Positions 26,339 through 64,000 of a DNA stretch of 64,000 nucleotides are shown here, piece by piece. Numbering within the stretch: position 1 is the stretch's first letter; the number at the start of each line of letters is the position of its first letter. The stretch is from Amoebophrya sp. A120. Taxonomy: Eukaryota; Protista; Dinoflagellata. The notes below the pieces were generated by a model. It saw only the letters and a program-made list of their open reading frames with translations. It ran no database searches and was not told the DNA's origin. The stretch is taken from NCBI GenBank assembly GCA_905178155.1, contig CAJINV010000018.1, forward strand, positions 1,034,609 through 1,098,608, in the 5' to 3' direction. Both the position numbers and the translations under genes were made by a program.

Positions 26339-28600
26339 TCACAGCTGATCCAGTTCCCAGCTGTTATTGAGCATCAGTCTGCACCGCACGGCGGGTATGT
26401 ACTCGTCTTTCGTCTTGTTGCTCCAGTACTGCACCCAAATGAGCGAATCCTTCGGGTCCCCCGTCTCACTCGGCATCACGCCCTTGACTATTGTGAGGAA
26501 AAATCCACCCCCATATCGAAAGCGAAATTTGTGTTGCTGTATTTGACTACACAAATCACGTTGGTCTTGCTGGAGAGGACTGCAGACCCATATCAAGCTT
26601 GAGTAGAGAGGATTTGACTTAGGCGCTTAGCATGAAAAGCGTCCGTGATGTTGGCTCAACAGCATGACAAACCGCCTCCATAACGGGACGGAAGCTGCTG
26701 CCCTTGTCTTCTTGCAACACAAACGCGATTTGTGACCTCAAATCAGCAACACAAATGTTCGAAAACCTACCTCTTCAATATGGGGAGGGGGGATTTTTCC
26801 TTTTCATATTGACGGTGGCCTGTTCGGGCTGTGGGTCACCCAACTCCCGGAGCACTATCATTTGTAAAAACGTCCCCGCCCCATAGTTGTGGTGCAATTC
26901 TGCATGCTGAAGATGCTTCTCATTCGGAGCCCCAGCACTCCGGAATTTGTCATGCTCCCATCAGCATGCTGCTCTGGATTTGTGACGCTGGTGAGCTAGC
27001 TGGTGAACAGTACCACACTACGAGACCAAACCTGTCATGCGCAACAACCAAGCCCTGTGGATTTGTCTAGCAGATTTCCCCACTTGACTATGGGTATGGG
27101 GTGGGGACGTTTTTTCACAGGATAAACACCCACACGTTGTCCTTCTCCTGCAGCTGTCGCTCGTTGGAATATCAAGTGCAAATATGTCTGGGTCTGGGAG
27201 ATTGTGAGATTTGTAATGCTCTGCTGATAGGAGAGAAAGATCTGTCATGCGTCTTGCGCTACCAAGCTATCTTTTTGTGATGCAAAAACGCAGGTTGTCA
27301 TGCAGTCGACGCAAGACCAAGTCGCTCAGAAACTTGTCATGCGCGTCCCCATATCATAGGCTGCTTATGATTCGCAAACTAGCGTCACAAATTCCCAGAC
27401 CCAGACATTTTTGCAATGCATATGGAAACCAGCTCCGCGACGCCCATGGATTTCCGCAGCAGGTGGAGCGTTTTGTCCCGTTTCCGCACGTCCTATCGTA
27501 CGGAAAAAGTGTTTCACTGTAAGGATTTTGCAAGTTTTGCATCACAAGTTTGTTTTACACGACAGCGGAAATTTGCCATGCGGGGTTCCTAAGGGAAAAC
27601 GCAGCTAGAAACTCATGGTCCTGCATGTGTAGCATGACACACACTTCTGCGATCCATTTTCTGCATCACAACTTTACAGTGAAACAGTTTTTTCTTGCGA
27701 TACGTCCGCCATCTTCAGTAATGTGTCCCCACCCCCGTTCACCCAGGCCAGCCAGATTTTGCAGTCGCCGACCTGCTTCAAGATCTGTTTCAGCGTCTGC
27801 TCATCGTCTTGGCCGACGGCCCGAAAAGCCTGCTTTTTCAGTTGCTTGATCTCTTCCGTTTCGGGCTCCGTCGTGGTCGGATGATCTATGGATGTGTCAG
27901 AATCGAAATTGACAAAATCGAGAAATTTGTGATGCACAAAACCGATGCCAGTTGGAGACTCAGTTTCCAAGTGGCGCATGACAAATTTCGCGAGCACCCA
28001 AATCCAGTCTGTCATGCTGTTTGGGCAAAGAAGACTGCTCCTGTCATGGTACTCTGGCAGCACATTGCGTAGCCCAAAACAGGCTTACAATCGGCCTCAT
28101 TTGCCTGCTCCCCAATACAGACTTTCAGTGCCCTACATTTTACGCATCACAAGTTTTTCGATTTTGTCGATTTCGATCCTGACACATCCATATGATCCGC
28201 TGTGGTAGTACTGCCACTACGCTTGCTCGCACTACTACTACTAGCACCACCACCTCCATTCGGACTTCGACTTGAGCTGGTGTGGCCAGCTGTTCCACTG
28301 GTCGTGCCGTTCGCAGTAGTTGCACCTCCTGCATAATTCCTTGTGGGCGAAATTCCACTCAGTTTATTCAGCGAGGAAGAGGAGCTACTGGCGGAACTGC
28401 CAACATTATGACCGGCTCCATTTGCCGCACGCAATTCGTCTTTGTCGTGCTCCTCTTGCAATTCCTCCCCCTCCAATAAGTTCGCAACTTTGAACTCGTG
28501 CTTGAATTTCGGTTTTGAACTGGACCCCTGCTGCGTGTCGCGGGCGGAGGAGGCAACGGGAAGGTCGCGGAGCCTGATAATTTGGTTTTATTGCTCATCG
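26339..28600 (-). CDS. 3' exons of a gene with an ankyrin-like segment; may be continuous with the coiled-coil gene upstream
   Basis: After introner removal the frame reads AFRAVGQDDEQTLKQIL..NGGGDTLLKMADVRKRDKTLHLLRKSMG..NVWVLRELGDPQPEQATVKGVMP..WVQYWSNKTKDEYIPAVRCRL..*. Upstream boundary approximate. Confidence 0.55.
26489..26808. mobile_element. Introner family E
   Basis: Family E TIRs; direct repeat ttgac. Confidence 0.85.
26856..27124. mobile_element. Introner family B
   Basis: Family B TIRs; flanks agcac/aacac. Confidence 0.8.
27170..27422. mobile_element. Introner family A
   Basis: Family A TIRs; direct repeat tggaa. Confidence 0.85.
27494..27702. mobile_element. Introner family G
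   Basis: TIR tatcgtacggaaaaagtgtttcactgt...acagtgaaacagttttttcttgcgata; direct repeat cgtcc. Confidence 0.85.
27887..28192. mobile_element. Introner family C
   Basis: Family C TIRs; direct repeat tgatc. Confidence 0.9.
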
Positions 28601-28766
28601 ATTCGAGAGAGAGAGGGTTGTGTGTGATGTGTGAGTGTGTGATGCTAAAATTGCAAAGGATTCTTGTAGTTTTATTTTAAAAACACAGAAATGAGCAACA
28701 CAAGAAATTTGTCGATCTCGAGTACCACATAGAATCCCCGATGAGCCGATCTTTGTCGAGCGCGTT

Positions 28767-29046
28767 TATCCTGTGTAAAAACGTCCCCACACCATAGTTG
28801 TCATGCAAATCTGCATGCTTAAAATGTTTGCCATGCGGAGCCCCATGAGAAGCATTTTCTAATGGTGTTTTGAAATTTGTCATGCTCCAATCAGCATGAG
28901 AGACTAGATCTGTAATGCTGCTGAACTAGCTCAAACAGCACTACACTACGCGTCCAGATTTGTCATGCGAAACAAGCAAAGTTGGCCGAGTTGTCTAGCA
29001 GATTTTCCATCTTGACTCTGGTGTGGGTACGTTTTTACTCAGGATA
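28767..29046. mobile_element. Introner family B
   Basis: Family B TIRs; direct repeat gcgtt. Confidence 0.85.
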
Positions 29047-29074
29047 GCGTTCTGGGCGTCCTCTTGCTGCTTGT

Positions 29075-29682
29075 TATGCATTGCAAATATCCCTGGATGT
29101 CTGGGAGGATGGAACTTGTGATGCGTCCTGTGGGTCACACAAAACTCTGTGTTGCGTGATCACCAGAAGTTGTCCTTTTTTGACTAACGTCGTATCGTAT
29201 CGCTTTGACATTTGACTCCTGTCAGGGTGGCGTTAGAACAGACTTAGCCTCTGCCAATACCGTGGCGCTAGAACAGATTTAGCCTCTGCCAATACCGTGG
29301 CGTTAGAACAGATTTAGCCTCTGCCAATACCCCTAGGTGGACACCCGTTCCACGTCCTACAGGTACCACCCGACCGCATCCGCCGAACCGCTTGCGATTG
29401 CTTACGCGTGAGTACGGCCAGTGGGCGCTAGATGTGGCTGACCTGATTTACCATCCAAGCCCGCGAGCAAGGTGGAGCTCCAGTGTTGCCTTGTTGGGTT
29501 ATTCTTACAAACTTTGCACGTCTTACAAACTAACATGAGCGGGAGTTTCTCATGCAGGATAGGCATGATAGAGATTTTGCAGAATCTGTCATGCTAGGTC
29601 TTGCATGCCAGCCTCACGGGGCATGGGAAATATGCATGACAAGTCTGCAATCTTCCAGACCCAGACATTTTTGCATTTGATA
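29075..29682. mobile_element. Family A introner containing a 5'-truncated non-LTR retroelement
   Basis: Family A ends; direct repeat cttgt; empty site in the paralog at 15738-15742. Confidence 0.85.
29189..29530 (-). mobile_element. 5'-truncated (or SINE-like) copy of the introner-nested LINE, 3' end only
   Basis: Homologous to 52130-52400; three 35-bp tandem repeats at 29227-29331; candidate TSD actaac at 29183-29188 and 29529-29534. Confidence 0.85.
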
Positions 29683-30099
29683 CTTGTTGAGCTGGTCCAA
29701 CTTTGTCAGTGTTATGGAATAGGGAAAATGAGCTGTAGACTGGCAGCTGGAAGTGGAACTACTACTACTTCTCCGTATGCATGACAAAAGACGCTTGTCG
29801 TGCTCAACGACACACACATAATTTTTTTACATGCATTCCTCCCCGACAACCTTTTCTACTTCAATTGTCAAGAGATCGCGAACGCCGACAGCTGCCCAGA
29901 CACAATTCCAAATTTTCCCCGTTCCATAGTCAGCTGCTCTCTTTCATGCTGTATCCTGGCTATGGTCGACGCTTGCGGTGAGTTCAAGCTTTGTGCTTGA
30001 TCGTCACCCGCGAGGTGCTCCGACGAAGTGGAGATGTCTGGAAAAAGATGGGTTTTTGGTTCCTTCCAATACCGCGATAAAACCCACGGCAGCCCATGC

Positions 30100-37297: not shown

Positions 37298-37665
37298 TGT
37301 GAAGATGCGAACAAACTAACCAACGACGAGGTAGAACCCACTACGAGTAAAAACAACACCTAGTTGAGGTGGTACAAATATGCATGAGAGATTATTTGTG
37401 TGTGTGCCTTGACTGGCATCAAGGGCCCTGGGGTTCATTGGAAGAGTAAAGGTCGATGGTACTGCGTGCCCAGGCAAAACTGGGGCACTCGGGAACCTTC
37501 ACTATTCTTGCCGTGACGTTCGTGCCCGTCTTAGCCTGTTTCAGGTTCAGTAGTCATCTTACTCTAGTAGAATTGAATTAGTGACGATCGTGCCCGTTTA
37601 GGTGTGCTTTGGATCTTTGGAGTGGATCAAGGTTCTTATCGTTGGTTGATGATTTATGTGTCATA
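37298..37665 (-). repeat. 3' LTR (368 bp)
   Basis: Direct repeat of 43987-44350; by eye it differs by one 4-bp indel and one substitution. Confidence 0.92.
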
Positions 37666-37924
37666 GTCCCCCTCACTCCAAATCCAAAGTCAAAAAATAA
37701 AATCTGTATTGCAGGTTCTTTGTTTATAGTCTTTGCGAGACTTGCGAAAAATAAATGCAGGCGTAAATGGAAGCGAATAAATTTGGTGCATAATAAAACT
37801 CTCTTCGATAGTCATCAGCAGTCCCCCTTGCGCCGAATTTCTTCGCGTTCGTTCGTTCGTTCGTTGGTGTCCAGTTAGGGTTGCTGGCGGTCTGTGGTGT
37901 TTTTCATACTCGGAACGTTTTCGG

Positions 37925-40900
37925 TTAATCCAACTCGATTATGTCGTTTAGTTCGAGAAATGCACGAAACTCGATAGGAGGACAAGTCTTAGTCAAACCG
38001 TTTGACTTGTTAATCTTGGTCGAGTGATAAACGCACTTGATAAGTTGTTTCTCTTGCAAATCGCGCATCTGCATGCCACGGATGTCGATATGTTTCAAAG
38101 CGCTTTTGGTGCCGTTTTGGTTTTCAGTATACGAAATTGCGCTGGAGTTGTCACATCCAAGTTGAATAGGCAGTAAAAGGCTGTGTGATGCAAAGAACTT
38201 TTTCCAAAACGGGCGCAAAGATTCAAGACAATAGTGAAAACGTAAAACCATTTTCGCGGCTTCGCTCATGCCATAGAGCTCAGCTTCAGAAACGCTAGAA
38301 CTAACGCTGTTTTGACTTGCGCAACGCCATGCGATGGCATTTCCGTTCAGACAGATCACTACGCCGGAATTAGACTTTCTATCTCCGAAACTAGCCCAGT
38401 CGGAGTCGCTCCACGCGGTGAGGATAAGACGATCTCCAAACTTTTCACTTCGGTTTTTGTATCGGAGACCTCGGCGGGTCCGTAAGTAGCGCACGATGCG
38501 CTTGAGTGCCAAAATGCACTCGGGAGTAGCTTTCACGCGGGCGCACATCTTTAAAGCTACGACTATGTCCATCCTGGTTTGACACAAATACTGTAAGGAG
38601 CCAGTTAGTTCTTGCTTGGTTTTGACTAATTCAGGCACTTCAGGCGCAGAGACATCAGGAGGCGCATCCATTGGCGTGGAAGTGTTGCGACCTGTGTCAC
38701 CGCCAAAGCGATCAAGAATTTTCTGCACGTATTTGTCTTGGTTCAAGACCATGTCGCCGGTCTTTTTGTTTTCGCGGGCTTCGATGCCAAGGACATCGTA
38801 GACGAGGTGCGTACCTTCGTCGCGAACCTCTTCGGGTTGTAACTTTAGCGCGGGCCTAAGTTCTTCGTGGTACTTCAAAACTTCTTCCTTGTCACCGAAA
38901 AACCAAAAATTATCTACAAATACTAACAACAAAACACCGGCACGAGTCCAGAGAGTGGCCTCGATGGGGTTGCGCTTCCATTCTTGTTTGACAAGAACGG
39001 CATCGCGGTGGTCTTCCCAGGCGCGGGAACTAAGGCGCAGGCCATTCATGGCGTATTCTACCACACCAAGGCGGTAGCCTAGCTCGTTTTGCAATCGCTG
39101 ATCGAGATCGATCACGACCGGAACTGGGTACTTTGCTTGCAAAAAGGCTGAAGTAGCGTCGGAAGGGAATGCAAACATCCTAGGTGACTGAACTTTCATA
39201 CAAAGCAACATACGCAAAATACTTAAATCAGGCACAGTAGCATACTTCTGGTTCCCAGACATTTTGTCCAGAAAGCCTAAGCATACGATCCGGGCCTTAC
39301 GTTTGCCGCAGCGCTTTACACTAAGCAACATTTTGCAGGGTACTGCTCTGCTGCCGCTGCGTTTGAACCGTTCGACTTCTTCAGGTGTAGCAGGCCTGAA
39401 TACGTGAGAATGTGCTTTGACTTCTTTAGAAATGGCTTCTTTCCAAGCGGGCTCTGTAGTGTCAAAACCAGACTTGTGATCAGGGACAGCGATAGCTTTG
39501 TAGCAAACTTCACCAGGCTCCCAGTCAGCACAAATGAGGGGCGCAAGCATGGCTGCAAGCGTATTGTCGTTAATGTCGTTGATGTTGAGCTGTCGGCATC
39601 GTTCTGCGATGTCAGAAGCGACTTTGTGCTTTTGTGCTTCTTTCAAATGCGAATACTCGGGCTGAGCATCGATTAACGCGCGCACTGTGAGTAGCGTTTT
39701 CTCACGTTGTTCGTTGCGTTTTATCCAAGCGCCACGCACCGGCGCTGTTTCAGTTGTCGCGATCAACTGGCGTACGCGCTGCACCTCTTCAGATTTGAGT
39801 TTGTCGAAAACGCCCTGATAGTAGTCCTTGGTAAGACGGAACTTTTTCTCTAGTTCGATGGGTGCAACATCAAGTGAGACAGCCGGGCCACCGTTGCCAG
39901 GCGGCGGGAGCGTGTCAGGTTCACGAGATGACGAGCTTGCGCTGCTACTTGATGCGGCGGGGGCATCGGTGCTCGATTTTGGGTCGGCTTTGATGCTGTC
40001 AGCTGCATCGAGGGTTTTTGGTGCGACCTTCGCATTACCATCCGGAACTATTTTGATGGTTGTCTCTTCGTCGAGAAATTCGCCCTGGGGCGTGTCCGGA
40101 TGGCTATCAGGGACGTTGTGCGTTTTGTAGAGGCTTTTGAGTAACATGGGTGGAAAAGTCATAGCAGTGGCCGTCAGGTGCCTACGTACGTGAGACGCAT
40201 GCGAACGGCGATACCTGCCATCATGATCCACAACGAAAGTGACTGAGTTGTTGTTCACTTGGCGATGGATTAAGGTGCAGGGACCTAACCATGCTTCTTT
40301 GTCCTTGTCGAAAATTTCTACCAATTCACCAACTTTGCACTCGTCGGATTCATGATAAAAATTGCGCTGAAGTTCCCTCAGCTTCCGCGTCTCATCTACA
40401 AGCTGTCTGTCGTGCTTCAGCTCTTCGACCAGAGCACGGGCCCTACAACGGATTTTGTAATCGGACTCAGGACTTTGCTCGTTGACTAAAACTGCTTGCT
40501 GCTCTGTCAAATCTTCTACAAAATTAGGCTCGAGCTTAAACGGATTTATGACCCACTGCACCTGCGCAGGCGCAAGCCCGTCAAGCGCAGCGGTGGGCGT
40601 CATGTTAACCGCGTTTGTTGCTTGTTGTACCAGGCGCGGGATGATAGAACTCTTTTGGCCATAAACGTAATAAAGACGATGCAAAACAGCACGCAAAAGA
40701 CGATGGCGGCGCTCGCAAGTTCCATTCACCCAAGAAGCCTTAGGCGTCAGGAAAAGCTGAATGCCATACAGCTGGCACCATTCGCGCACTTTTATGTTGT
40801 CAAACTCCTTGCCTTGGTCGCAAAGAATGTTCTTGCCCATCATGCCAACAGTTTTCAAGTACTCTAAAAAATCAGCAGTGTCCTGCATCTTGACTGCTCG

Positions 40901-43867
40901 TTTGAAAGTTGTGGTGGTGCTGGCGCGGGAATGGATGTTGATCCCATGTAGCACGCTAAACTCCTTACCTAACGGAAAAAACGTATCTAAGGCGCACCAG
41001 TCGGACAAAGAATTGGCTTCAACTCCTCCGACTTTATGGTGGGGAAAGGCATGGGTCTTAAGGCGCGTCAAGTTGTGCTTGCAGAAGTGAATAACCATAC
41101 TTCTGGAGCGCTGGGAGTTGTCAAGCGTTCGGACAATTTCCCACAACTTTTGGAAAGTAGGCATAAAAAGGCAAGCGCCAAGCTGGCATATCTTTTCATA
41201 ACTAATTTGCTCGAAAGCCGGGGCCTCGGTCGAATCTGTTCGCCTGAACTTCTTCGCCGGGCGCGTTCGCTTTGGTTGGTCCTGGTCCTGGTCGGCCTTT
41301 TTGCGCTTTTTGTTCTTGGCCTTTTTCTTCTTTTTGGCCTTGGGCTGCTCAGAGCCAAGATGATCCGAAGTAGGTAGCTCAGAGCGGTCGGCATTTTCAG
41401 AATCGCTTGAGGCGCTGCGGGTTGCATCCTGGCCACGATCTTCCTGTTGCGCGCTTGAAGATGTGGGGTCCGAAGATACAGCAGGCTCAGGCTCATGCGA
41501 TTGGTCCTCTGGTGGAACCTCTGGCGCGGGGAAAGAATAGGCACAAGATGCAAGCCACCTGACATCGTCGTCTTTGATTTCAAATGTCCGATGCTGGTGG
41601 TGACTCGGGCCATCAAGCACTACTACTCTTTCATCGAGATACGCTGACAAAATGCGAAGTTTTTCTTTGATCTCGTCATTGATGATGGGCGCCAGTAGTG
41701 CAAGTCGTTTTTGACGGTTGTGAACGACTTCTGCGATTATCTCGTTTGTGCTGAGATTTTTGCAATCGATTTCGAAAAACTGAAGACGCAAAGAGCTATC
41801 GAAACCAATCAAAGAATTAAAGTAATCATGGGTGGCGCACCACAAGTCCTGCATGAGTTCCTCGCTGCAGGTTACAAACGCCGTCTGGATCGGTTCCTTG
41901 TGGTTGATACGCACCGGGAGCTTGATCTGGGTGCATCCTTCCACGAGCTGGATCGCGTAGGATAAGAACTGCATCTTGTCCAAGGACATCGGGATACCGG
42001 CTCTGCGCAAAAGCGGATAACTCAGCAACACCCTGTTGCCGAGGCTAGGGACGTGGGCAACGTTCTGGAGCTTGATCGGCGGTGAGGTTTCCAACCAGAT
42101 AGAACCCGTGGTAGTACTGGTGGTCGGTCCGTTTGCCGTGCTAAACGACATTGCCGGCGCTTTCACGAGTTCATGCAGAACCCGCACCGGTCCCGCCATG
42201 TGCTTGCTCGCACAAGAATCCAGCATCAAGAACATCTCCACCGTGTTTGCTGTCGCGGGAGTCGCAAACGCACTGTGGGGGTGGTCGGGGCAGGAGATTT
42301 CGACAGCCACGGCACAGAAAAATCCGCCCTGCTGGTTGTAGTTCGGGTTCGCCGGTTGGTGGACCATCTGTTGTTGCAGTTGCTGCGGGGGGTACGGATT
42401 TTGTTGTTGTTGGTGCTGGGCACCGTACTGGTTGTAGTTCCCCTGCTGCTGCTGCTGCTGGTGGTATCCACCATGCTGCTGGTGGTGTCCACCGCTGTTG
42501 TGGTCGCCGGATGCTGCATACGAGTTGTACTGCTTCCCCGGTGCCCCAGTTTTGCCGCCGTCGGTATTCTGCTTGGTACGGCACTCCGATTCCCAGTGGC
42601 CGGCGCGGCTGCAGTAATCGCACCAGGCGTCCGGGTTGTACGGCTTCCGGGGTTTACCACCCTTGCCGCCCTTCTTACCGCCCTTGCCACTACCCTTCTT
42701 GCCATGACGACCGCCCTTGTGCTTGCGGCCGCCCTTCGGGTCGTGGAAGGCAGGGAAGGCGACATCAGGTTTCTTCTTCTTCCCGAAAAGCTTCTCCGCT
42801 TTGCCAATCGCAGCCGCCAGCTGCGTCGCGTTTCTCGGTTTGTCCTGGACGATGATGCCCCTGACGTTCTTTTGCGCGTTCCGTTCGGCGTAGCGGACGA
42901 CTTCCGAGAACGGCAGTTTGTCCTCAGGCAATTCAGCAAGAGCTTCGCAGAACTTCTTATACCACTCCTGTGGGTTTTGGTTCTGGTCCTGCTTGCAATC
43001 TTCCAGTTTCTCCATACCTGCATCGGGGTCTTGCAGTTCGTTCCGGAAGATCTTGATGATGCGCCGGAGGCGCTTCGAACTGTTATGCGCCTTGCGGACT
43101 GTCCTCCGCTTCTTCGCCGCTAAGTACTGTCGCAGGGTAGTAGTATGCTGGATTTTTGATTCAATCCCTTTCAGGATACGGCTCGGCTTGTACTTCTCCT
43201 GCGCGAGCGACAAGTACTCGGTGAACGGTAACGAGTCATCTTGATAGAGCGGGAGTTGCGACAAGACCATCTTCTTCTCGTCTTTTTCGTTCGACGATTT
43301 CTTTCGCTTTTTCGGTTTCTCGTCCTCCTCGGAACTCGCAGAACCGCTTGAGGAATCGGAAGAAGAGTTTTCGTCGCAGCTGCCACCACTGGAATCCGAA
43401 GAAGACAGAATGTCGGAATCGGAATCCTTCCGCTTCGGTTTCTTCTGTTTCTTCTTTTTCGTACTGGTCTTCGTGGCTGGTTTCTGCAACTGCTTCTTCG
43501 CATCCGCGTCGCGCTGTTGTTCTTCCTTCGCGACGTCCTCGAGCTGCTTCCGGAGGTCAGCAACGACAGTGCCGCCCTTGTCGTCTTTCAAGTCGCCCAG
43601 CAGTTTTCCCATCTGCGACAACTTCGCCACAACGCTAGGCGCAGTTTGCAGCGTCAGAGTGGTGTCGGCGGTAGAAGAAGTGTTTTGCTTTTTCTTCTTT
43701 TTCTTCTTGTCTGGGTTCGGCGTGATGGTTCCGTCATCACCGGCTGTTTGCTGTTCGCCCTCAGGCTCGCCAGAAGTTGCTGTTGCTGCTGCTTTCTCCT
43801 TCGCAGCCTTTTCCTTCGCAGTCTTCTCTTTCTTGTTTTGCTTCTGCGCTGCAGTCAGCTCGCCCAT
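37925..43867 (-). CDS. Copia Gag-Pol polyprotein (zinc knuckle, protease, integrase, RT, RNase H)
   Basis: CDYCSRAGHWESEC (CCHC); LMLDSCASKHM (protease); CALDTF..ILCDQGKEF..NGTCERRH (DDE integrase upstream of RT, the copia order); DATSAFLQA and LLVFVDN (RT); WSDSDWA, SVSEAELYG, CDNSSAI, KHIDIR (RNase H). Confidence 0.95.
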   Translation of the reverse strand: MGELTAAQKQNKKEKTAKEKAAKEKAAATATSGEPEGEQQTAGDDGTITPNPDKKKKKKKQNTSSTADTTLTLQTAPSVVAKLSQMGKLLGDLKDDKGGTVVADLRKQLEDVAKEEQQRDADAKKQLQKPATKTSTKKKKQKKPKRKDSDSDILSSSDSSGGSCDENSSSDSSSGSASSEEDEKPKKRKKSSNEKDEKKMVLSQLPLYQDDSLPFTEYLSLAQEKYKPSRILKGIESKIQHTTTLRQYLAAKKRRTVRKAHNSSKRLRRIIKIFRNELQDPDAGMEKLEDCKQDQNQNPQEWYKKFCEALAELPEDKLPFSEVVRYAERNAQKNVRGIIVQDKPRNATQLAAAIGKAEKLFGKKKKPDVAFPAFHDPKGGRKHKGGRHGKKGSGKGGKKGGKGGKPRKPYNPDAWCDYCSRAGHWESECRTKQNTDGGKTGAPGKQYNSYAASGDHNSGGHHQQHGGYHQQQQQQGNYNQYGAQHQQQQNPYPPQQLQQQMVHQPANPNYNQQGGFFCAVAVEISCPDHPHSAFATPATANTVEMFLMLDSCASKHMAGPVRVLHELVKAPAMSFSTANGPTTSTTTGSIWLETSPPIKLQNVAHVPSLGNRVLLSYPLLRRAGIPMSLDKMQFLSYAIQLVEGCTQIKLPVRINHKEPIQTAFVTCSEELMQDLWCATHDYFNSLIGFDSSLRLQFFEIDCKNLSTNEIIAEVVHNRQKRLALLAPIINDEIKEKLRILSAYLDERVVVLDGPSHHQHRTFEIKDDDVRWLASCAYSFPAPEVPPEDQSHEPEPAVSSDPTSSSAQQEDRGQDATRSASSDSENADRSELPTSDHLGSEQPKAKKKKKAKNKKRKKADQDQDQPKRTRPAKKFRRTDSTEAPAFEQISYEKICQLGACLFMPTFQKLWEIVRTLDNSQRSRSMVIHFCKHNLTRLKTHAFPHHKVGGVEANSLSDWCALDTFFPLGKEFSVLHGINIHSRASTTTTFKRAVKMQDTADFLEYLKTVGMMGKNILCDQGKEFDNIKVREWCQLYGIQLFLTPKASWVNGTCERRHRLLRAVLHRLYYVYGQKSSIIPRLVQQATNAVNMTPTAALDGLAPAQVQWVINPFKLEPNFVEDLTEQQAVLVNEQSPESDYKIRCRARALVEELKHDRQLVDETRKLRELQRNFYHESDECKVGELVEIFDKDKEAWLGPCTLIHRQVNNNSVTFVVDHDGRYRRSHASHVRRHLTATAMTFPPMLLKSLYKTHNVPDSHPDTPQGEFLDEETTIKIVPDGNAKVAPKTLDAADSIKADPKSSTDAPAASSSSASSSSREPDTLPPPGNGGPAVSLDVAPIELEKKFRLTKDYYQGVFDKLKSEEVQRVRQLIATTETAPVRGAWIKRNEQREKTLLTVRALIDAQPEYSHLKEAQKHKVASDIAERCRQLNINDINDNTLAAMLAPLICADWEPGEVCYKAIAVPDHKSGFDTTEPAWKEAISKEVKAHSHVFRPATPEEVERFKRSGSRAVPCKMLLSVKRCGKRKARIVCLGFLDKMSGNQKYATVPDLSILRMLLCMKVQSPRMFAFPSDATSAFLQAKYPVPVVIDLDQRLQNELGYRLGVVEYAMNGLRLSSRAWEDHRDAVLVKQEWKRNPIEATLWTRAGVLLLVFVDNFWFFGDKEEVLKYHEELRPALKLQPEEVRDEGTHLVYDVLGIEARENKKTGDMVLNQDKYVQKILDRFGGDTGRNTSTPMDAPPDVSAPEVPELVKTKQELTGSLQYLCQTRMDIVVALKMCARVKATPECILALKRIVRYLRTRRGLRYKNRSEKFGDRLILTAWSDSDWASFGDRKSNSGVVICLNGNAIAWRCASQNSVSSSVSEAELYGMSEAAKMVLRFHYCLESLRPFWKKFFASHSLLLPIQLGCDNSSAISYTENQNGTKSALKHIDIRGMQMRDLQEKQLIKCVYHSTKINKSNGLTKTCPPIEFRAFLELNDIIELD

Positions 43868-43971
43868 GGTTTGTCGTTGGGGTATTTATGATTCTAAATT
43901 TGTAATGCTGATAATTAGGCGCAAAGTGTAATTTTAAATGTTCGCAATCAGAAGTAAATCTTAGTGGTAAT

Positions 43972-43986
43972 TTGGGCTCATAACTC
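43972..43986 (-). other. Putative primer-binding site of the half-tRNA (initiator Met anticodon region) type
   Basis: gagttatgagcccaa lies immediately after the 5' LTR and resembles the GGTTATGGGCCCAG PBS of Drosophila copia. Confidence 0.6.
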
Positions 43987-44350
43987 TGTGAAGATGCGAA
44001 CTAACCAACGACGAGGTCGAACCCACTACGAGTAAAAACAACACCTAGTTGAGGTGGTACAAATATGCATGAGAGATTATTTGTGTGTGTGCCTTGACTG
44101 GCATCAAGGGCCCTGGGGTTCATTGGAAGAGTAAAGGTCGATGGTACTGCGTGCCCAGGCAAAACTGGGGCACTCGGGAACCTTCACTATTCTTGCCGTG
44201 ACGTTCGTGCCCGTCTTAGCCTGTTTCAGGTTCAGTAGTCATCTTACTCTAGTAGAATTGAATTAGTGACGATCGTGCCCGTTTAGGTGTGCTTTGGATC
44301 TTTGGAGTGGATCAAGGTTCTTATCGTTGGTTGATGATTTATGTGTCATA
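43987..44350 (-). repeat. 5' LTR (364 bp)
   Basis: Direct repeat of 37298-37665. Confidence 0.92.
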
Positions 44351-50628: not shown

Positions 50629-51289
50629 TTTCTTGACTGATAATTTTCAAATCGAATTCGCAGTTTTAATATATTGCCTTACCTGTCAGCTCTTTTCCCT
50701 ACTGACGTATCTCAAAAATACAAAAATCACGTAGATGCTGTGTCTTCACTTCGCAAGAATAGTTCCTGCTTAGTACTAGAACCTCGATTGGTACTAAACG
50801 TGAGTACCACAGCCTCTCTCGTACTACTACGCTCCACCTCGGCTCAGTACACTTGCGGCATGTACTTGAAAAAGGACATTGAACAGACTGCGCTGAAAAC
50901 TTGCGGTAGTTGTGCTGACATCGTCGACATCAAGCCACAAAAGTTTCTCCAGCTTCATGAGTTGATGTGCAAAGAACCAACGATTCCCCCGACCTCAGGC
51001 TCAGGGATATAATTTGCATGTGTTTCGTATTGCGTCCGAGATGAGCGCTATTGTATCCAGAAGATGTTCCAACAAGCAATGGTCCATGCATGATCTTCTC
51101 GGTGTTTATTGTTCCTCCATCCCGCGTGGTCGGAGTAGCAAGTCGTGTAAGACCGATGTTCGTGAATACGGGAAAGAAGTACAACAACCAAATAAAAGCA
51201 CGATCCACCTATCCGGCGCGGGAGAGATGAACTGGCACTACGAAGCAAGGTCGCTAGTACGATATCACGCATGCCAAACTGCCATCCCC

Positions 51290-54200
51290 TCACGCGTTCT
51301 CCAAGGCAGAAATCAAGTATTTTATTTCCACCAAACTCAACCCCGTACCGTGCATGCCCGCGCGTGGCTGGTAAACCGTCACTGTGTTCTCCGCAAGTTC
51401 CAGGTTGCCTTTGTTGTCGTCCAAAAACAGAACTCGCTCGGCGTCTGGAAACGCCGTGGTCGTCGTGCCAAGAGCACCCAGCACTTGCTGCGGAGGTGCT
51501 GGGTGCTGTTGCGAATCATTTTCCAGATTAGCACCGCTGCTTTCCATCGCTACATGCTCTGCCCCTGCTGCGCTCATGCTGTCGAATAGGTTCACGATCT
51601 GCTCCGCCTTGTAGAATCCTTTTGGCCTGTTATTACAGTGAAAAATGCCCCCACCCCCGAACTACTTGGGAGCATTTGTATTGCAAACCTTTCCAAATGA
51701 CACATTCGCCCTCCTGCATCTATCAGCATCACAGGTTTCCAATCGTGAAGAGAGAAAATTTGTATTGCAAAAGACCCCAGCAAGAGCGGCACTTGTCATG
51801 CAAGCGACGCGATACACGCCTAGACTCTGCATAGCATCAGAAAGATTCATACTCCTTTCATGCATGACAAAAAGCTTTCATTTGGAGACTTCGCATCACA
51901 AATTTTTGCAATTTGAGGGGTGGGGGGCACTTTTCTCTGCAATACCTGTGCAACGTGTCCGAGGCGAGAATCCTGGCCTTGCTGTCGTACTGTTTCAGGT
52001 CATATGCATTGCAACTATGTCTGGCCCTGGAAGACAGTAACTTGTGATGCTAAATCTGCATCATGCTGAAATCTGTGTTGCATAAGTGCCAAAAGCTTTC
52101 CACTTTCGACCAAGATAGTAGTAGTAGTAGTACCATTTAACTCCTGGCGGGTGGGCGTTAGAACAGATTTAGCCTCTGCCAATACCTGGGCGTTAGAACA
52201 GATTTAGCCTCTGCCGATGCCCCTAGGTGGAGACGCGGTCCACTTCCTAACTACCACCCGGCTGCACCTGCAAAACCGCTATCGATTGCTTACGCATGGC
52301 TACAGCCAGTGGGCGCTATGTGTGGCTGACCTGCCTTACCATCCAAGCCCGCGAGCAAGGTGGAGTTCCAGTATTGCCTTGATGGGTTAGTCTTACAAAC
52401 TTGCTCGAAGAACTACGCGCGTGGCCGGTTGCGCGCTAAAAAGTATACAGGGGGTCTAATGATCAGACACGGTGATCCTATCACGATGGCGGGCGACCCA
52501 ACGGCGTGTCCCTTTCAGACACGTTTTGCCGATCTTCTTCCCGCACCCTTTTATATGCGTTTCCATAGAAACGGCCCGCGGAGCTCCGCATTCGCAGAGC
52601 CGCCATCGCGCCCGCCCCGGGGGGACCCCTTGGGGAAGGGGGGCGCTGCATTAGCGCAGTCTTTTAAATTAGCAACCCTGGCACCACTTCTTTTATATAG
52701 TTTCTCTTTCTTCTCTTTCTTTTTCTTTTTGCTTCCTAGCGCGTCAGTGCATACGGTTCGCCGGTGCAAGGAGAGGAAAAGCAGCGCCGTGCCTTTACGG
52801 CTGGCGGGAACGAAATGATTAGCATCGCCGCACCCCTCCGGGCTGGCGGGAACGTGTCGAAACGAGGTCCATACGCAGTCTCATCATTTTTTATCGCTCT
52901 TTTCTGTTCCGTTTTGTGTCTACGCTCTTCCCTCTGCACCCGCCAGAACACCCCGCATTTGCCTTTTTCGCCTTGAGCCCCGGTCTGTGTCTTCTTTGCT
53001 CCTTTATTTCATTCACGTATGAGGCCTCTTATTGCCTCTACTTTGCTATCCATTCGTGAATCTCATCCAAAAAAGAATAAACGCACTGCAGTCACTATTT
53101 TCTCTCTCTTCCTTCATTTTCCATCGCTGTTTTCTTTTTCTAGGACTCTATACATTTGGGCTAGTTCTCGCTGCATAGGAGTTTCATACTGCATCCGCCT
53201 CCTCCTCCTCTTCTCCTCCTGCATCCTCTTCTCCTTCTCCCGCTGTTCTTTCTCTTTCTGCATCAATGTCGTGGGGTCATCTGCCATTAATTTCTCGACT
53301 GTGGGGAAGTTAGAGGCCTCCGTCGTTTGCTTCTTTTTTTCGTCTTCGTTTCCACCGTTTTGGTTCGCTTTCTCGTCTTTTTTCTCCACTTTTCTCCGTT
53401 TTTGCTGCTCTTGGTCCGCCTCTTTTTCATCTTGACCTTCCTCCGCCCGCTCCTTATTAATCGCGTCCCTTTTCTCATCCTCCCCCCACGCCACCAGATT
53501 CCGAAAAAATGCTCGCGCTGCCTCTTCTGGACCCTGATCTATGTAGTATCCCTGTCCCATCGCCCCTCTTTTGAACACATATCCTCTCCGAGTGCCTTCA
53601 TATTCTTGCGCCCCGTAGAAGCTTTTTTTTTCTTCCTCTTCTCCGTCTTCGCTGATCCCTTCCCCTTGGTCTCCTTCCCTCCTTCCCCTTTCTTTTTCGT
53701 TTGACTTTCTACCATCGTCTTCTTTATTCGCCTCCTCTACCTCCTGCAACAGTTTCGTCGCTTTTTGGATTATTCTGAATGCCCCCTGCGCCATCTCGTC
53801 ACCAGTTTCCTCTGCTTTCTTCTTCTCTTTCTCGATTAGTCGCAGTATAGTTTCAGAAAGTGTCTCTCCTTCCCTTCTTTCTTCCCCTTTTTCTTCTTGC
53901 TTTCTTTCTACATTTGCCCGGCTACTTTTACTTTGACTGCTTGCAGCGCCACTCTCCTTTCCTGTCCTCTCTGTGTTGGTGCTCTTTTTCGTTTCTTTCT
54001 TCTTTTGAGATTTCGCGCTGTCTTTCTCTCCTAAGCCTCGCTTCATTTCATCACCGTCCCCAGCTTCTACGTTTTCTTTCTTTTTGTCCCCTTCTGTCTC
54101 CTTTTCTTTCATTTTCCTATGTATGTATACCTGCCTTTCTATTTTTGACATTTCCGGCCATTCCCACACCGGTTTCAGTGGAATCCGCTTCGTTCCGAAG

Positions 54201-57200
54201 TCGAACCGCACCCAGTCCGTATACTCATTGTCGTGATTTAGCACGTTCGCCACCCTGAGCGGTATCTCTTCTTTGGTCCCTCCGTCTATATTTCTTGTCG
54301 CTTCCGCTCTGCTTGCAGTTCCTTTTCCCCATCTCGTTACTATAGTTAGGCCCGGGTCCTCACTTTCGGCTTTTTCTATTGTCTCCTGTAGCTCCAAGCC
54401 TATTCCATGCCCTTTTCGTAGTATCCCCCGCGTCTTCTCCCTTAACTCGTGGTAGTCTAGCAGTATAATCTGCACCGCTCCGCCTTCTTTCTTTCTCCTC
54501 TCTGTGACTATTTCTATGGCCCTCATTGCGTTGTTGCAGTATGCCGCGAAAGTCTTTTCCTCTGTTCTTATTTCAGTCTTTAAGTGCTCCACTTTTGTCT
54601 CTATCGTCCTCAGGTGTGTCTCCGTCCTTTCACTTGCCTCTTGTACTGTGACTGTTGTACTTCTTTCCTGTCCGGCATGCTTCACCCATATTTTTTGCAT
54701 CCTATCGCTCTGCCCTTTCTTCCCGAGGCCTCCTTTTCTGTTCCTGCTGACTACCAAACCCGCGCTCCCCCTGTGTGTATACTGATCCTCTACCCTTGGG
54801 GGACCCCGCGCGCTTCTCTCCTTCACGATCCCCACTGCACGCAGGTCGCTTCCCGGCGATAGCCTAACTGTCGCGCCATCCTTCAGCGCCCGCAGCAGTG
54901 CTATGTCGGCTTCTTTTCTTTTCAGCATTTTTCGTTCTTCTGTTTTCGGGATGCCCGCCTTTGCTTCGCCTACTACCTTTACTGGCGTCGTTGCTAATGG
55001 TGCGAACAAGGCCGGGTCTGTTAGGTAGTTTGCCTGCGCCGTTGCGCGTAGCGTTTTCAGTCCCATCGTGTACGGGTCAGCTAGTCCGAGTAAATTCATC
55101 CCGAACACTACCCTATAGAATGTCTCCGCCGTTGTTTCTGTTCTGGCCATCAGCTCTTCCACTGCCTCCGTTGTCATTCCCAGTGTTTCAGCTATTGTCA
55201 GCGCCATTTCGCCCATCAATTCCGCCCAGTCTCCTAGGTCGAAATATAAACGCATCACTGGCAGGAAGTATATCATTGCCGACACAAAGAAAACCCGCAC
55301 TACCCACGTGAGTTCCTCGCCGTTAAGCCTTCCCCTTTTCGCCATTACTTGGCACGCCAAGTGTTGCCCTATCCCTATACTTTGTCTGACCTGCCCCCTC
55401 AGGGCCTTGGCTTGTTCCGTTTTGTCTTTCGGCACTATTTTGATCCCCAGAATCTTCAGAAATGTCTTTTCCTCGAACAGAATCCCGAAAGGCTGGAAAG
55501 CCTGTCGGATCACGTTTACCTTCAGCGGGTCTTCTATCGACGTTGCAACTTCGCACTTCTGTGGTGCCAAAAATTGTCCTTCAGTTGCGTAGATTTCCTC
55601 ATATGCCCAGCTTGCTGCTTTGAGCGCGCGCGCTACTATTTTTATATCTTCGATAAAGAACTTTATTACAACTGTGCCGTCGTCCACGTATTGCACGCAT
55701 AGGGTCCATCTTCTTTTCCCGTCTCCGGGGAGTGTTCCGGAGTAGTATCGAGTCTCCGCCCTTTTTCCTTTCTCATTCACCTTTCTTTTTCCCTGCTCTG
55801 TCGTTACCTTCTCTCCCTTTCTGTATCCCGTGACTACTGGCGGGGCTTCTTTAAGGTAGATCTCGTCGACTTCTTCTCACTCTTACATTGTAATCGGGGA
55901 AAGTTGTATCGATATCGCCCCCCTTGTAAAGCCTTTTAATCCTCGTTCTCATCTTGGCTTCTGCTGCTTTTAGCCTTTCCTCTTCCGCCCTACCGTCTTC
56001 ATTGAAGATTTCTTCGAGGAACTCCGCGATTATTTCTACTCCTGGGAGGAAAATCAGGGTCCCCGCTAACATCGTTTCTACTGCGCCCTGAATGAGTTCG
56101 CGATGTCTTAGCACGTGTCCGTAACAATCCCCGTCTCTGATCCATAAGTCCTTCGTCCACGCTGTTACTATTATCAACTTTATGAAACACGGGTGCAGTT
56201 TTGCAGCTCTGTATGCTGCTACTGCCCTCGGTAGCCCTATATTGTTGAAATAGTTTGACGCATCTAGCCCAAAGACTACCGCTTCCTTTCTTCTTTTCTC
56301 TTGCCCATTGCCTCCCTCCTTTCTTTCGTCCGGTGTTTCCGCTTCGCCCCTCTCTTCCCCCTCGTGACATGTCTCCAGGACCTGCAGCGCTGTGGCTTGG
56401 CAGCTTGCTCCTGGTTTTGATGCTGATCCGCATCGGGTAAATGCGTCATTTTTGTCGGCTACCCGCGCCATTTCATATACCACTACGCTCAGCAACACCC
56501 TCACTATCGCTGTCCCCTGTATCACGGTCCGGATTTTTTCTATTGCCGTTGTTGCTGCTGTTTGTTTTTTCAACAGCTCCACCTGCACCGCATTGAGGTG
56601 CTCCTCCAGGAGCTTCGGCCCCTTTCCCTCGTTTCGTTTCATCTCATACTCCTCCACTTCTTTTAAAAACCTATTAAACGCCTCTGCTAACACTTGGTAT
56701 TGTTCTGGTGTGAGGGCGCGGTATATTCCTTGTCTGAGTCCATCCATGCCTGCTGCTTCACTGTTTAACTTTGAGACGTGTGCTTGTAATTGTGGCCCCG
56801 TAAATCGTATGCTCTTTACTTCTTTACATGCTTGCGTGAGCTGTCGTAGCGCTTTTTCGAGCTCTTTTCCGTCATATGTGTGCTTTTTGTCATTTTGCTT
56901 TCTCACGAATTCACACTTGAGGAGGTGGCTACTCGCTATCCTTTCTGTCGCTGCTTCCACCCCTTGCACTAGTGTGCCGCCTACTGTTACTTCCTTCGCC
57001 TCCCCCATCGGCATTCCTCTGCCTACCCCGCACACAGCTTCTTTTACCTTTCTAGCCGTCTCATAAACCGCTTTCTCGTTTTTCTCTTCCTTTTTTGGCT
57101 TTTCTGCGAATGACGCCAGCCAGGCCTTTTCCATTTCGTCCTGTTTCAACTTCTGCTCCTGTCGTCGTGCGGTTTCCTCGTCCTTCTCCTCTTTCTCTTG

Positions 57201-60200
57201 CGTTTTTCGCTCATCTTTTTTCTTCTTCTGCCAATATTCGTAATTCGCGTCCTGTTTCGGTACTTCTTTGAGTTTCAGCACGCCTGCCTCGCCTAGCTTC
57301 TCCATCAGCCATTTTTGCATCCCTAGCATGCTCCTGCGATTTTCTGGCACCGTCCCTGCTTTTTCCATCACCTGCTGTAGTCTTTCTAACGTCACCGACT
57401 TTCTCGGCCATTTCACCAGCTGCGTGACAGGGTTTTTCTTCTGAAGTCTTTCTTTCCCTTTTATGATCTCAATTCGCTGCCTTGAGCTTTCAACTGTCGG
57501 CACCATCAGCGTATAGCGCGCATTAAGTTTCCACCTCTTTTGCTCTTTTTCTTTCTTCTGTTTTTGTTCTTCTGTGGGCTTCTCGGGCTCTGGGATCCAC
57601 ACTATGTCTGCTAGCAGAGCTACGTGGTCCGACTCCTCTTCTTTATTCTCCCCCTCTACCTCCTTATCTTCTCCGTTTTCCTCTTTTACTGTCCGCGGTA
57701 TTTGAATTCTTTCACAGGTCTTCGCCACAACTTTTGCCCTTTTTTCCGCTATCGCTACTATATCGATCGTTGTCGGATTTTCCGGGTTTCGGAAGCATGT
57801 CGGGCCTCCTGTTGTAAGTGTTTCAGCGTGTTTGTTGAAAATCTTCTGTATCGGTTCTATTATTTCGCTGAAGTAAACTTTTTGCACTCCTGTCCGCTCC
57901 CTCTCAAATTTCACCTTTCCCCTTTCATCAATTTGATACTGACAGTTTAGGTCTCCCGCCAGTATGGCTATTCCTGCTTCTTCTATCATCTTTTCGAGTT
58001 CTGAAGTCATTTCTTGCATTTGTTTCCTTATGTGTGCTACCTCCTCGCTGTCCTTCGGTGTGTCCTTTGCCGGTCTCCGATAGAACGCGACCACTAGCAT
58101 TCCTCTTTCGTCCTCTGCTGCGATCATCCATAAAAGTATATCCTCCTTGTCTGTCACATCTCTCTGGAAGAATGCGCCCCCCCTTTCCCTTCGAAAAATC
58201 TCCTTTCTCATTGTCTTTTTTGGTAGCTTCTTCGTTTCGTCTGTGTATACGATTCCTACCGCTCCCGAGTTCATCTCTGACGCCACGCCTTTCATGTCTG
58301 TGGCGGCTGCGAAGTATATTCCTGGCCTCCCCTCTAGTCCTAATCTCTTCATCTCCTCTTCTACATGTTTGAACGCTGCCTGATCTTGTGTCAGCGCGGC
58401 GGTCTTCAACTCGGCGCAGCTCGCCCCTGTAATTTTTGGCGCTATGTCTCTGTAAGCTTTCACTAGACTAATCGCATTCAGACGCTTAACCCCGTTAATA
58501 TTCCAGAACATATGTCGCTCTCTTCTTAAATCATCTTGCCCGTCATTTCTTTCTTTTTTCTCTTCTTCCCCCATTTCTTCTTGCATTTCTCCCCTCCATA
58601 TCCCGTCTGGCTCCTCTTCATTATCATTGCGCTCTTCTTTTTCCTCCTCCATCTCACCTTCCCTCTGTTCTGTGTCCGTCCTCCTTGTGCTGTCTTCTCT
58701 TCCTTCCGGGGTTTCCCGCGGTAGCAGGCTTTCCTGCCGTTTTCTATCATCATCTCCCTCGTTCTCGTCCATCTTGTCTTTGTTTTCTTACTGTTTTTGA
58801 CTATCGGGACCGACTGCTCATTCTATTGCTACGCTAGCTGTACACTATCCAAACTTGAGCCAAAATGGCTACGGATTTCTCATGCAGGACAGGCATGACA
58901 GAGGCCTCGCAGAGTTTGTCATGCTAGGCCCCGCATTTCAGACCTCATGGGTCATGGAAAATCTGCATGACAAGTTGCATTCTTCCAGACCCAGACATAG
59001 TTGCATTTGATAGGTCAAAGTGCGTGTTCAACGGGGTCAGAAAAGGAGAGTTGGAGTGGGTGGACGCGCTGAAGGCAGATTCGTAATCCGACTGCGTTTT
59101 GGACAGCAGCTGCACGGGATAGTTGTGCTTGCTCCGGGGGCCATTGGTAACATTACTACCTCCATGCGTCATCGCGTTGTTCGGCGAGCTGCCGGACGCG
59201 CCGCTTTTGACGCTGCCGAGGGGGGAGGGCGGAGGCCGCTTATTTTTGTTCCCCGCTGTATGCGCAGCTCCCGGCGTTGTCGCGTGTTCGTCTGGAAGCA
59301 GGAGATCCATCGGGTTGTTGGTGTAGTGCTTTCCGCCAGATGAACCATTTCCCGTTGTAGTAACCACCGCTCCTGCCATCGGCGTGTATATCACACAGAA
59401 AAAAGCTGGCAGGGCATATCTGTAATGCCAAAATAAATACACAGAAAAACCTGCATTGCGTATCCGAAACAGCATTCTATGGGGCCACCTATGACAATTT
59501 TTTTTGTGTATTTATTTTTGCATTACAAATATGCCCTGCCAGCTTTTTTCTCTGGGATAGTGTAAAACGGCCGCGCATCGGCCTGTTCCGGTTGCTTTTC
59601 TGTGCAAAAGTGTCGTACTCGTAGTAATCGTAGTACTGCATTACAAATTTGCTTCTTAAGTCAAATCTGCATTACAAATTTGATTTCTCATGCTGAGAAA
59701 ATTTGTCATGCGATTTATACTAGTACGATAGTTTTGCAAAGCATAGTTGCATCAGATCGGGTGCCGCTGGCGCTGCTGCTGTGTCTATCAGGAGCATCTG
59801 GGGCTGGATGGCCAGCGGGGCAGACACGCTCATGTTCAGTAGGTTATTGTTGTTCGCCGTCGTGCTCATGCTTTGAAACAGCATGTCCTGATCGTCATCC
59901 GCATAATTGGTTGGTGGTGCAGCAATGTTGTGATCCAGCACCGGCGCAGGTCCTCCAGGTGGAGGACGATCCGCAGTTACCATACCACTACCCGTGGTGG
60001 ACATCGTTGCATCCCCGTCAGCATCAAACAGCGGGTGGTTGCTGGGTGTGCGGACTTCTTCCCTGTGATTCTCGCGCTGCTGCACGGGAGTTGCAACAAG
60101 CCTGGTGCTTGGAGGAACGGCAGCCGATGTTGCAAACGAACCTGTACTTGATGTTGCTGCTGCCCCACCAGATGAAGTGGATCCGTTCTCGAAAAACTTC

Positions 60201-63786: not shown

Positions 63787-63789
63787 TGA

Positions 63790-63904
63790 TATCAAATGCA
63801 AAAATGTCTGGGTCTGGAAGATTCTAAACTTGTCATGCTGTCTTTGGATTCCAAAAACATCTGTATTGCGTGACCAACAACAGGAGTCCAGTTTGTGTTA
63901 CGCG
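63790..63904. mobile_element. Left arm of a family A introner interrupted by a LINE
   Basis: tatcaaatgcaaaaatgtctgggtctggaag TIR; the introner sequence stops abruptly at a (tag)n run. Confidence 0.85.
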
Positions 63905-64000
63905 TAGTAGTAGTAGTAGTAGTAGTAACCATTTAACTCCTGGCGGGTTGGCGTTAGAACAGATTTAGCCTCTGCCAATACCTGGGCGTTAGAACAGATT
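63905..64000 (-). mobile_element. 3' end of a third copy of the introner-nested LINE (runs off the window)
   Basis: (tag)n tail followed by accatttaactcctggcggg and the 35-bp repeat, nearly identical to 52116-52204. Confidence 0.9.

Follow-up and report, generated by a model that had tools for sequence, protein, structure and literature searches.

The 6.76-kb element on the minus strand of the analysed Amoebophrya DNA is an APE-type non-LTR retrotransposon (LINE), and this copy is headed by a complete dinoflagellate spliced leader (SL). It sits at a defined mid-introner position, and the template for its reverse transcription was probably the SL-trans-spliced mRNA of a source copy that keeps its own acceptor. 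Amoebophrya is described as an early-branching dinoflagellate with a parasitic lifestyle, whose mRNAs undergo SL trans-splicing and whose genome has genes in co-oriented blocks as well as introners with inverted repeats (PMC7789003). All positions refer to the window, i.e. the whole stretch of 64 kb that was analysed. The element is composed of the following features:

52115..58875, minus strand: whole non-LTR retrotransposon copy (6.76 kb), without LTRs and without target duplication, about 11 nt of the target being replaced
58854..58875, minus strand: complete 22-nt SL with AG at nt 6-7 and 21-22 (exact match; junction in X1, X2 and X8 contigs)
58773..58853, minus strand: 81-nt 5′ UTR, common to a sister copy that has a T-rich tract and AG instead of the SL
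55851..58772, minus strand: first frame of the ORF (P0001) with acidic N-terminus, predicted APE-type endonuclease (approx. residues 83-398) and first half of the RT (Foldseek, fold alignment)
55876..55879, minus strand: four frame-breaking bases, missing from other copies (X1 and X3 contigs)
53114..55876, minus strand: second frame of the ORF (P0002) with YVDD motif, remaining RT and long charged C-terminus (similarity to P0004)
52133..53113, minus strand: 3′ UTR of approx. 1 kb with 35-nt repeats near its end, the final part being present in many more copies
52116..52132, minus strand: (TAC)n tail (repeat sequence)

The 21-mer core of the SL has a single exact match in the 64-kb window (58854-58874, minus strand), and none of 100 shuffled windows matched it at ≤3 mismatches. 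T at 58875 brings the leader of the element to 22 nt; this base could be target-derived, T being present at that place in some empty introners. The junction between SL and introner was recovered without mismatch in contigs of the DNA runs X1 and X2, which share a sample, and in an X8 contig from a different sample. Its recurrence in three runs from two samples rules out an assembly chimera. The ATG is located at 58772, and one upstream ORF of six codons starts from UTR base 33. The 81 nt from SL to ATG leave no space for an ORF1. A relic SL was sought in the 300 nt after the SL by comparison with SL nt 8-22. The best score was 7/15, which equals the lowest value among 1000 shuffles, i.e. shuffle level, so that the tandem relic taken as a sign of more than one round in SL-tagged retrocopies is absent here. 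The original prediction had described a complete leader, no ORF1 and no tandem relic, and all three descriptions were confirmed. Two further statements held in part. The 81-nt UTR (58853-58773) is indeed followed by the ORF, but the ORF of the window copy is split into two frames with four extra bases near 55876. Likewise, the flank of the SL is introner sequence as predicted, but the arrangement is more than an abutment, since the element splits one introner in two (58876-59012 and 52003-52114).

The origin of the leader was addressed by comparing 5′ ends in the sequencing runs. Contigs matching 58560-58896 at 80% likeness numbered four in X1, five in X2, none in X3 and one in X8; X1 and X2 represent one sample, possibly the source of the window, and the zero count of X3 at the 5′ end is no proof of absence. 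The window junction is present at single-copy depth (X1 record 2 and X2 record 6; 51.8 in X1). A sister copy of 520 nt (X1 record 3/X2 record 7) has a depth of 46, compared with approx. 45 for single-copy DNA. It matches 58776-58855 with three differences in the UTR and retains the AG (58854-58855). Divergence sets in at the SL/UTR border, beyond which at least 255 (up to 440) nt of other upstream sequence are present without an SL. Seventeen of its first 30 diverged letters are T on the element strand, and a C directly precedes the shared AG. This upstream region reads as the expected unspliced form with a putative native trans-splice acceptor exactly at the SL border, although the region, of which 30 letters were read, may be host flank instead of element. 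Since the sister copy shares only the AG and then runs into the T-rich tract, trans-splicing is very likely the source of the SL, with retrotransposition following. The prediction that the template RNA was trans-spliced and copied through to its 5′ end is thereby strengthened. We infer that the direction led from the source copy to the SL-headed daughter. A genomic SL at the 5′ end of a coding sequence, located at the acceptor of the parent form, is also the hallmark of an SL-tagged retrocopy.

LINE RTs can jump templates, and such known jumps provide another conceivable route to the leader. The RT would have finished a 5′-truncated LINE RNA and then copied SL RNA or another SL-capped mRNA, without any trans-splicing of the LINE. 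The copy at 29 kb in the window has a rearranged 5′ junction, which would be compatible with this route. However, the border of the window element lies exactly at the AG of the T-rich acceptor of the sister copy, and neither an SL-RNA intron nor a foreign UTR is attached, making a template jump very improbable.

At least two additional introner-SL loci were present in the DNA runs. At the first one (X1 record 4 = X2 record 9; 10452 and 6833 nt), the 30 letters past the SL share a 7-mer and a 10-mer with the window UTR in conserved order, and 6.8 kb separate the SL from the distal end of the X2 contig; both features suggest a related subfamily. The other one (X2 record 8) comprises 67 nt at approximately double depth and is too short to classify. 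The SL-headed loci seen (three, one of them at about double depth) outnumber the SL-less loci (X1 record 3 and the L120 locus described below). The extra SL loci were matchable only via SL and flank, so that they demonstrate recurrence but give neither a ratio nor support for targeting. Copies of the 5′ end of the window element itself number two in the DNA runs, one of them SL-less, and constitute a small and biased sample.

Removal of the four bases at 55876 results in a continuous ORF of 1884 aa according to frame arithmetic. The contig lacking these bases accounts for a depth of 119.7 of 163.8 in X1 and 4.2 of 4.2 in X3. The continuous frame indicates an APE-RT LINE family with a single ORF, of which the window copy is a member frameshifted inside the RT. 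Searches of P0001 and P0002 in Pfam and NCBIfam gave no real match, PDB sequence searches with P0001 and alignment A2 returned only rows with E > 0.2, and a word-based homolog search of P0001 accepted 0 of 7990 candidates (candidate lengths 537-1712). HMMER over 1.84 billion representatives retrieved eight relatives, seven of which are labelled Amoebophrya and six of which are 1387-1738 aa long. A structure model calculated on the alignment of the relatives was of low confidence (pLDDT 52.6). Its top three Foldseek matches were human LINE-1 ORF2p (E 1e-8 to 3e-7; 912-963 columns), and an APE1/TDP2-type fold was predicted at residues 83-398 (Z 13-14; rmsd 3.5-4.5 over approx. 210-235 residues). 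Exo_endo_phos families match three of the eight relatives, one of them above the curated cut-off; P0001 itself has no Pfam match. For the RT, no Pfam match was obtained in P0001, P0002 or the eight relatives. P0002 contains a YVDD motif, whose DD is invariant in all seven aligned sequences, and is 27% identical to the C-terminal half of the single-ORF relative P0004 over 313 aa (E 4e-19). No family match to a restriction-like endonuclease was obtained for the C-terminus of P0002 in Pfam and NCBIfam, and the P0002 model was poor (pLDDT 47.6). The element thus combines a predicted N-terminal APE endonuclease (APE1/TDP2 fold, Exo_endo_phos in relatives), a predicted non-LTR-type RT behind it (ORF2p fold matches, YVDD), a simple-repeat 3′ tail and 5′-truncated copies with a lack of LTRs, all of which are characteristic of LINEs. 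As its proteins are missed by Pfam and NCBIfam and its relatives are stored in databases as unnamed host proteins, annotation of the family is likely incomplete. In the predicted relative P0009, a V-SNARE_C domain replaces most of the APE region; this fusion is likely a gene model merging a host exon with an inserted element.

The target introner and the other copies of the element in the window are listed below:

58876..59012, minus strand: target introner, upstream half, terminating in CATGAGAAA (flank comparison)
52003..52114, minus strand: target introner, downstream half (flank comparison)
approx. 29190..29535, minus strand: second copy, 5′-truncated to approx. 340 nt, at the equivalent position of another member of this introner family (29075-29684), with 6-7 nt target duplication
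63904..64000, minus strand: third copy, 3′ end with (TAC)8 tail, continuing past the window edge and followed by an introner downstream half (63789-63903)

The two flanks of the 6.76-kb element are halves of one 270-nt introner. In empty introners from DNA run X1, 11 letters lie between the positions matching 52114 and 58876, demonstrating that the insertion replaced approx. 11 nt without duplication. Compared with eight empty members, the 3′ junctions of the three window copies are located at +11, +10/11 and +10 after CATGA(G/C)AAA, the value of +10/11 for the 29-kb copy having been read by eye from its junction. The rough chance of the second and third copy both falling in the 15-nt zone, given 11 members, is 1e-5. 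Sequence-specific insertion into a repeated target was found for all three window copies, a small sample, which suggests that the LINE family inserts at a defined mid-introner position within a single introner family. Introner-site targeting was absent from the original prediction. It may hold for one subfamily only, because the L120 relative is not located mid-introner. The window also contains two paralogous segments (14883-16160 and 28210-30098) that are approx. 90% alike. Introner 29075-29684, which is bounded by an ACAAG direct repeat, is missing at 15.74 kb, providing a clean empty site for introner gain.

The same flanks bear on the possibility that the SL marks the insertion target, namely an SL RNA gene as in CRE, SLACS and NeSL, or that it results from an assembly error. 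Some site-specific non-LTR elements are known to insert into SL exons (PMC4640811). The window element, however, is flanked by the halves of one introner, the empty sites hold 11 other bases and no SL, neither a donor GT nor an SL intron follows the SL or the tail, and the endonuclease is predicted to be of the APE type. As contigs of three runs and two samples contain the junction, an assembly error fares no better, and we regard this explanation as extremely improbable.

Transcription of the locus was deduced from presumed RNA data with respect to the following host exons:

59012..59383, minus strand: host exon upstream of the element-bearing introner (X3 record 9; open frame on the minus strand only)
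51121..51625, minus strand: last host exon, joined by X3 record 9 to the upstream exon across the element

X3 was taken as an RNA run since its contigs skip introns, and X8, from the same sample, was treated likewise; among the runs found to contain the sequence, none is catalogued as RNA. X3 record 9 (depth 37.7, no mismatches) joins 59746-59988, 59012-59383 and 51121-51625, and the reading frame of 59746-59988, like that of 59012-59383, is open on the minus strand only. In this RNA-run contig, the host splices out the introner together with its 6.8-kb passenger, and the element lies in sense orientation in a transcribed intron. An unspliced X8 contig (depth 2) crosses the introner-SL junction, indicating that the X3/X8 sample carries the insertion. 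X3 contigs over the ORF (depth 2.8-4.2) are 1-4 bases off the window copy and lack the frameshift, pointing to another copy, or DNA in the run, as their source. The raw RNA runs X5 and X6 yielded 36 and 2 reads, respectively, all partial and in the introner-half bin, and are uninformative on the element. The window element thus has the position expected from the proposal that copies are sense to host genes and could be transcribed by read-through. With regard to a general orientation bias, all three window copies share the minus strand with the host genes, but the bias is not significant (empty introners in the window, four plus and four minus; filled ones, three minus; p = 1/8).

The original prediction had gone further and proposed a promoterless cycle. 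SL-headed copies contained in host pre-mRNA would acquire a new SL through the terminal AG of their integrated SL, thereby renewing their 5′ end each round; the SL-less copy would represent an ancestral state or a side product. The common strand of the three copies and the host genes, the transcription of the locus as an intron and the depth-2 X8 RNA contig crossing introner and SL are consistent with such a cycle. So are the at least three introner-SL junction loci, one apparently belonging to a different subfamily, and the fact that Rfam, searched over 51900-59100, gave no match at E ≤ 1 and hence no ribozyme. Moreover, the SL holds two AG acceptors and relics are described as excisable (PMC3229502). 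Several results argue against the cycle. The sister copy is SL-less and has a putative native acceptor with at least 255 (up to 440) nt of upstream sequence, and the L120 relative is SL-less as well. The window copy is frameshifted in the RT, and the ORF contigs of the RNA run derive from a differing, unshifted copy. Introner sequence instead of a T-rich tract precedes the integrated SL, and the orientation value of p = 1/8 adds no weight. Furthermore, re-splicing is reported to leave mostly a relic after nt 7 (PMC3229502), and none was seen here; a first-generation copy explains the missing relic no worse than terminal-AG reuse does. A copy retaining upstream sequence of its own is available as the probable source, and a promoterless cycle is not needed. 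We consider it unlikely, and neither a promoterless family nor self-renewal from the integrated SL was upheld.

The absence of a tandem relic would likewise be predicted if the integrated SL served as an internal promoter through its TTTG motif, with SL-headed copies expressing themselves on either host strand, as proposed for dinoflagellate retrogenes (PMC6050394). Such RNA would start within or after the SL, however, and an acceptor would still be required. Moreover, the 5′ end is covered by no X3 contig and by one unspliced X8 contig of depth 2, contigs showing presence only. This explanation is therefore improbable.

The preferred reading, retrotransposition of an SL-trans-spliced mRNA, can be described as a series of steps. 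A source copy with the same UTR, no SL and a T-rich tract plus AG, as seen in DNA contigs, would give rise to a transcript that is trans-spliced at that AG, as suggested by the exact border match. As expected from LINE biology, the APE domain would nick the introner 10-11 nt past CATGA(G/C)AAA, and the RT would be primed to copy the mRNA from its (TAC)n end, consistent with the 3′ junction common to the three copies. Most cDNAs would end early and some would reach the cap, bringing the SL into DNA; both forms were seen. The host would then remove the whole introner with its passenger, as in the RNA-run contig of the window locus, so that the insertion would cost the host little. The SL-headed daughters, having lost the outron, would be mostly end products that host read-through could occasionally re-express.

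The 3′ end of the element attracts a high contig depth. The summed depth over the last 500 nt (52116-52670) is approx. 50 times the single-copy level; by this rough measure, contig depth sums up to 2110 at 52336-52669 compared with approx. 45 in single-copy flanks. The excess at 52116-52670 may stem from numerous truncated copies or from a short derivative that is non-autonomous. Copies differ in how many 35-nt repeats they carry, with two in the 6.76-kb element and three at 29227-29331. Folding of the last 305 nt of the element was no better than that of shuffles (z 0.70). A different, copia-type LTR retrotransposon of intact appearance occupies 37298-44350 on the minus strand of the window. 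Its LTRs are 98.6% identical over 368 nt, its 1986-aa ORF has RVT_2, rve and Pol_BBD matches, and it is accompanied by an apparent 5-bp duplication (TGAAT); the LTR end on the plus strand is TA, not CA.

A metagenome scan with alignment A4 (274 pattern matches) yielded one locus, L120; the scan with P0001 (338 pattern matches) yielded no relatives. L120 encodes a distant relative, P0006, and carries the same introner families as the window. No SL was found at ≤3 mismatches in the 12.8 kb of L120. The ATG of P0006 is preceded by approx. 1.3 kb of unique, increasingly T-rich sequence, in which the search for a separate ORF1 on the same strand gave only a 153-aa stop-to-stop frame. The introner upstream of P0006 is whole, not split. 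Downstream of the ORF of this relative, a purine-rich stretch (L120:11926-12730) contains a 166-aa minus-strand frame; no 3′ end of the element was recognised there, and the downstream region has no similarity to the 3′ UTR of the window element. In addition, the exact SL 21-mer is present in 119 IMG/VR viral stretches (L001-L119), most of the 80 listed coming from giant-virus MAGs. Among the 45 viral contexts seen, the 21-mer is almost always preceded by an A and an AT-rich tract; L024 harbors three SLs 50 nt apart (7001-7121). No relatives of the element were detected in the 119 SL-bearing viral stretches by hmmsearch with alignments A2 or A3.

Together, the SL-headed and SL-less copies offer a rare paired view, in one genome, of a retrotransposon before and after SL trans-splicing and of an RT copying an SL-headed mRNA to its first base. 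The significance rests on these paired spliced and unspliced forms and on introner targeting, more than on a promoterless cycle. For Syndiniales at least, the element family is a testable candidate source of the RT that makes SL-tagged retrogenes, of which dinoflagellates have thousands. A LINE aiming at introners would be a parasite of a parasite, hidden in sequence that the host must splice out. If SL-headed daughters are active, trans-splicing joins internal promoters and ribozymes as a keeper of LINE 5′ ends. A broader proposal is an introner-resident LINE lineage that aims at a single site of this spliced-out mobile intron, rides on host transcription, replaces promoter and ribozyme by trans-splicing (at a native acceptor and later at the AG of its own SL) and supplies the RT for SL-tagged retrogenes. 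Taken as a whole, this proposal is tentative and rather doubtful.

Among known systems, R2 is the model for the promoterless cycle, since it combines expression from a host transcript with release by RNA processing. Its RNA is released by an HDV-like ribozyme. R2 is described as having no internal promoter and depending on the rDNA promoter (PMC13188248). It differs from the window element in its restriction-like endonuclease and 28S rDNA target, whereas the window element has no detected ribozyme and is accompanied by an SL-less copy with upstream sequence. A parallel in behaviour is provided by Tx1/R1-type elements, which share the APE endonuclease and likewise find a safe haven at a fixed site of a multicopy element. 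Xenopus Tx1L inserts into the Tx1D transposon, and the Tx1 and R1 clades have a separate ORF1 upstream, which the window element lacks with its 81 nt from SL to ATG. Site-specific non-LTR elements are reported to target SL exons and transposons, and those of the APE type belong to the Tx1 and R1 clades (PMC4640811). Unlike these, the window element has a single ORF, no Pfam RT match and relatives only in Amoebophrya, and its target is a spliced-out introner within protein-coding genes.

SL-bearing retroelements have been reported from six loci of Schistosoma mansoni (PMC5832876), and partial leaders beside mainly LTR and LINE elements from 597 loci of flatworms (PMC12582326). Like the window element, these copies carry the SL exon, which the authors attribute to integrated trans-spliced transcripts. 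They are mentioned in passing, the leaders are often partial, assembly chimeras are possible, and the passages concerned give no target specificity or life cycle. DinoSL-tagged retrogenes and mRNA recycling were introduced by Slamovits and Keeling 2008, according to PMC3229502, PMC6050394 and PMC12014239. They share with the window element a genomic SL before the coding sequence, derived from reverse-transcribed trans-spliced mRNA, and SL AGs that later act as acceptors. Reuse of the SL AG as acceptor has already been published for these retrogenes: re-splicing cuts after SL nt 7 and leaves a tandem relic, and relics occur in approx. one quarter of full-length ESTs (PMC3229502). The RT behind them is stated to be unknown (PMC6050394). 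In the window element, unlike in DinoSL retrogenes, the tagged mRNA is the retrotransposon's own, the SL is complete without a relic, and the parent form with its putative acceptor is visible in the same DNA runs.

Within the literature covered, with most subscription journals and Repbase reports outside its scope, no paper was found to describe a dinoflagellate LINE that targets introners or is headed by an SL. SL-bearing retroelements and transposon-targeting LINEs are known separately, and no report of their combination was found. Membership in the CRE/SLACS/CZAR/NeSL group was considered and rejected, as the flanks are not parts of an SL RNA gene and the empty sites are without SL. These elements resemble the window element in the SL sequence at the 5′ junction, but there the SL gene is the target. 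In the window element the SL is cargo carried into an introner target, and the endonuclease is predicted to be APE-type. In its mode of action the element resembles both target-specific LINEs and SL-tagged retrocopies, and it is not of the CRE/NeSL type.
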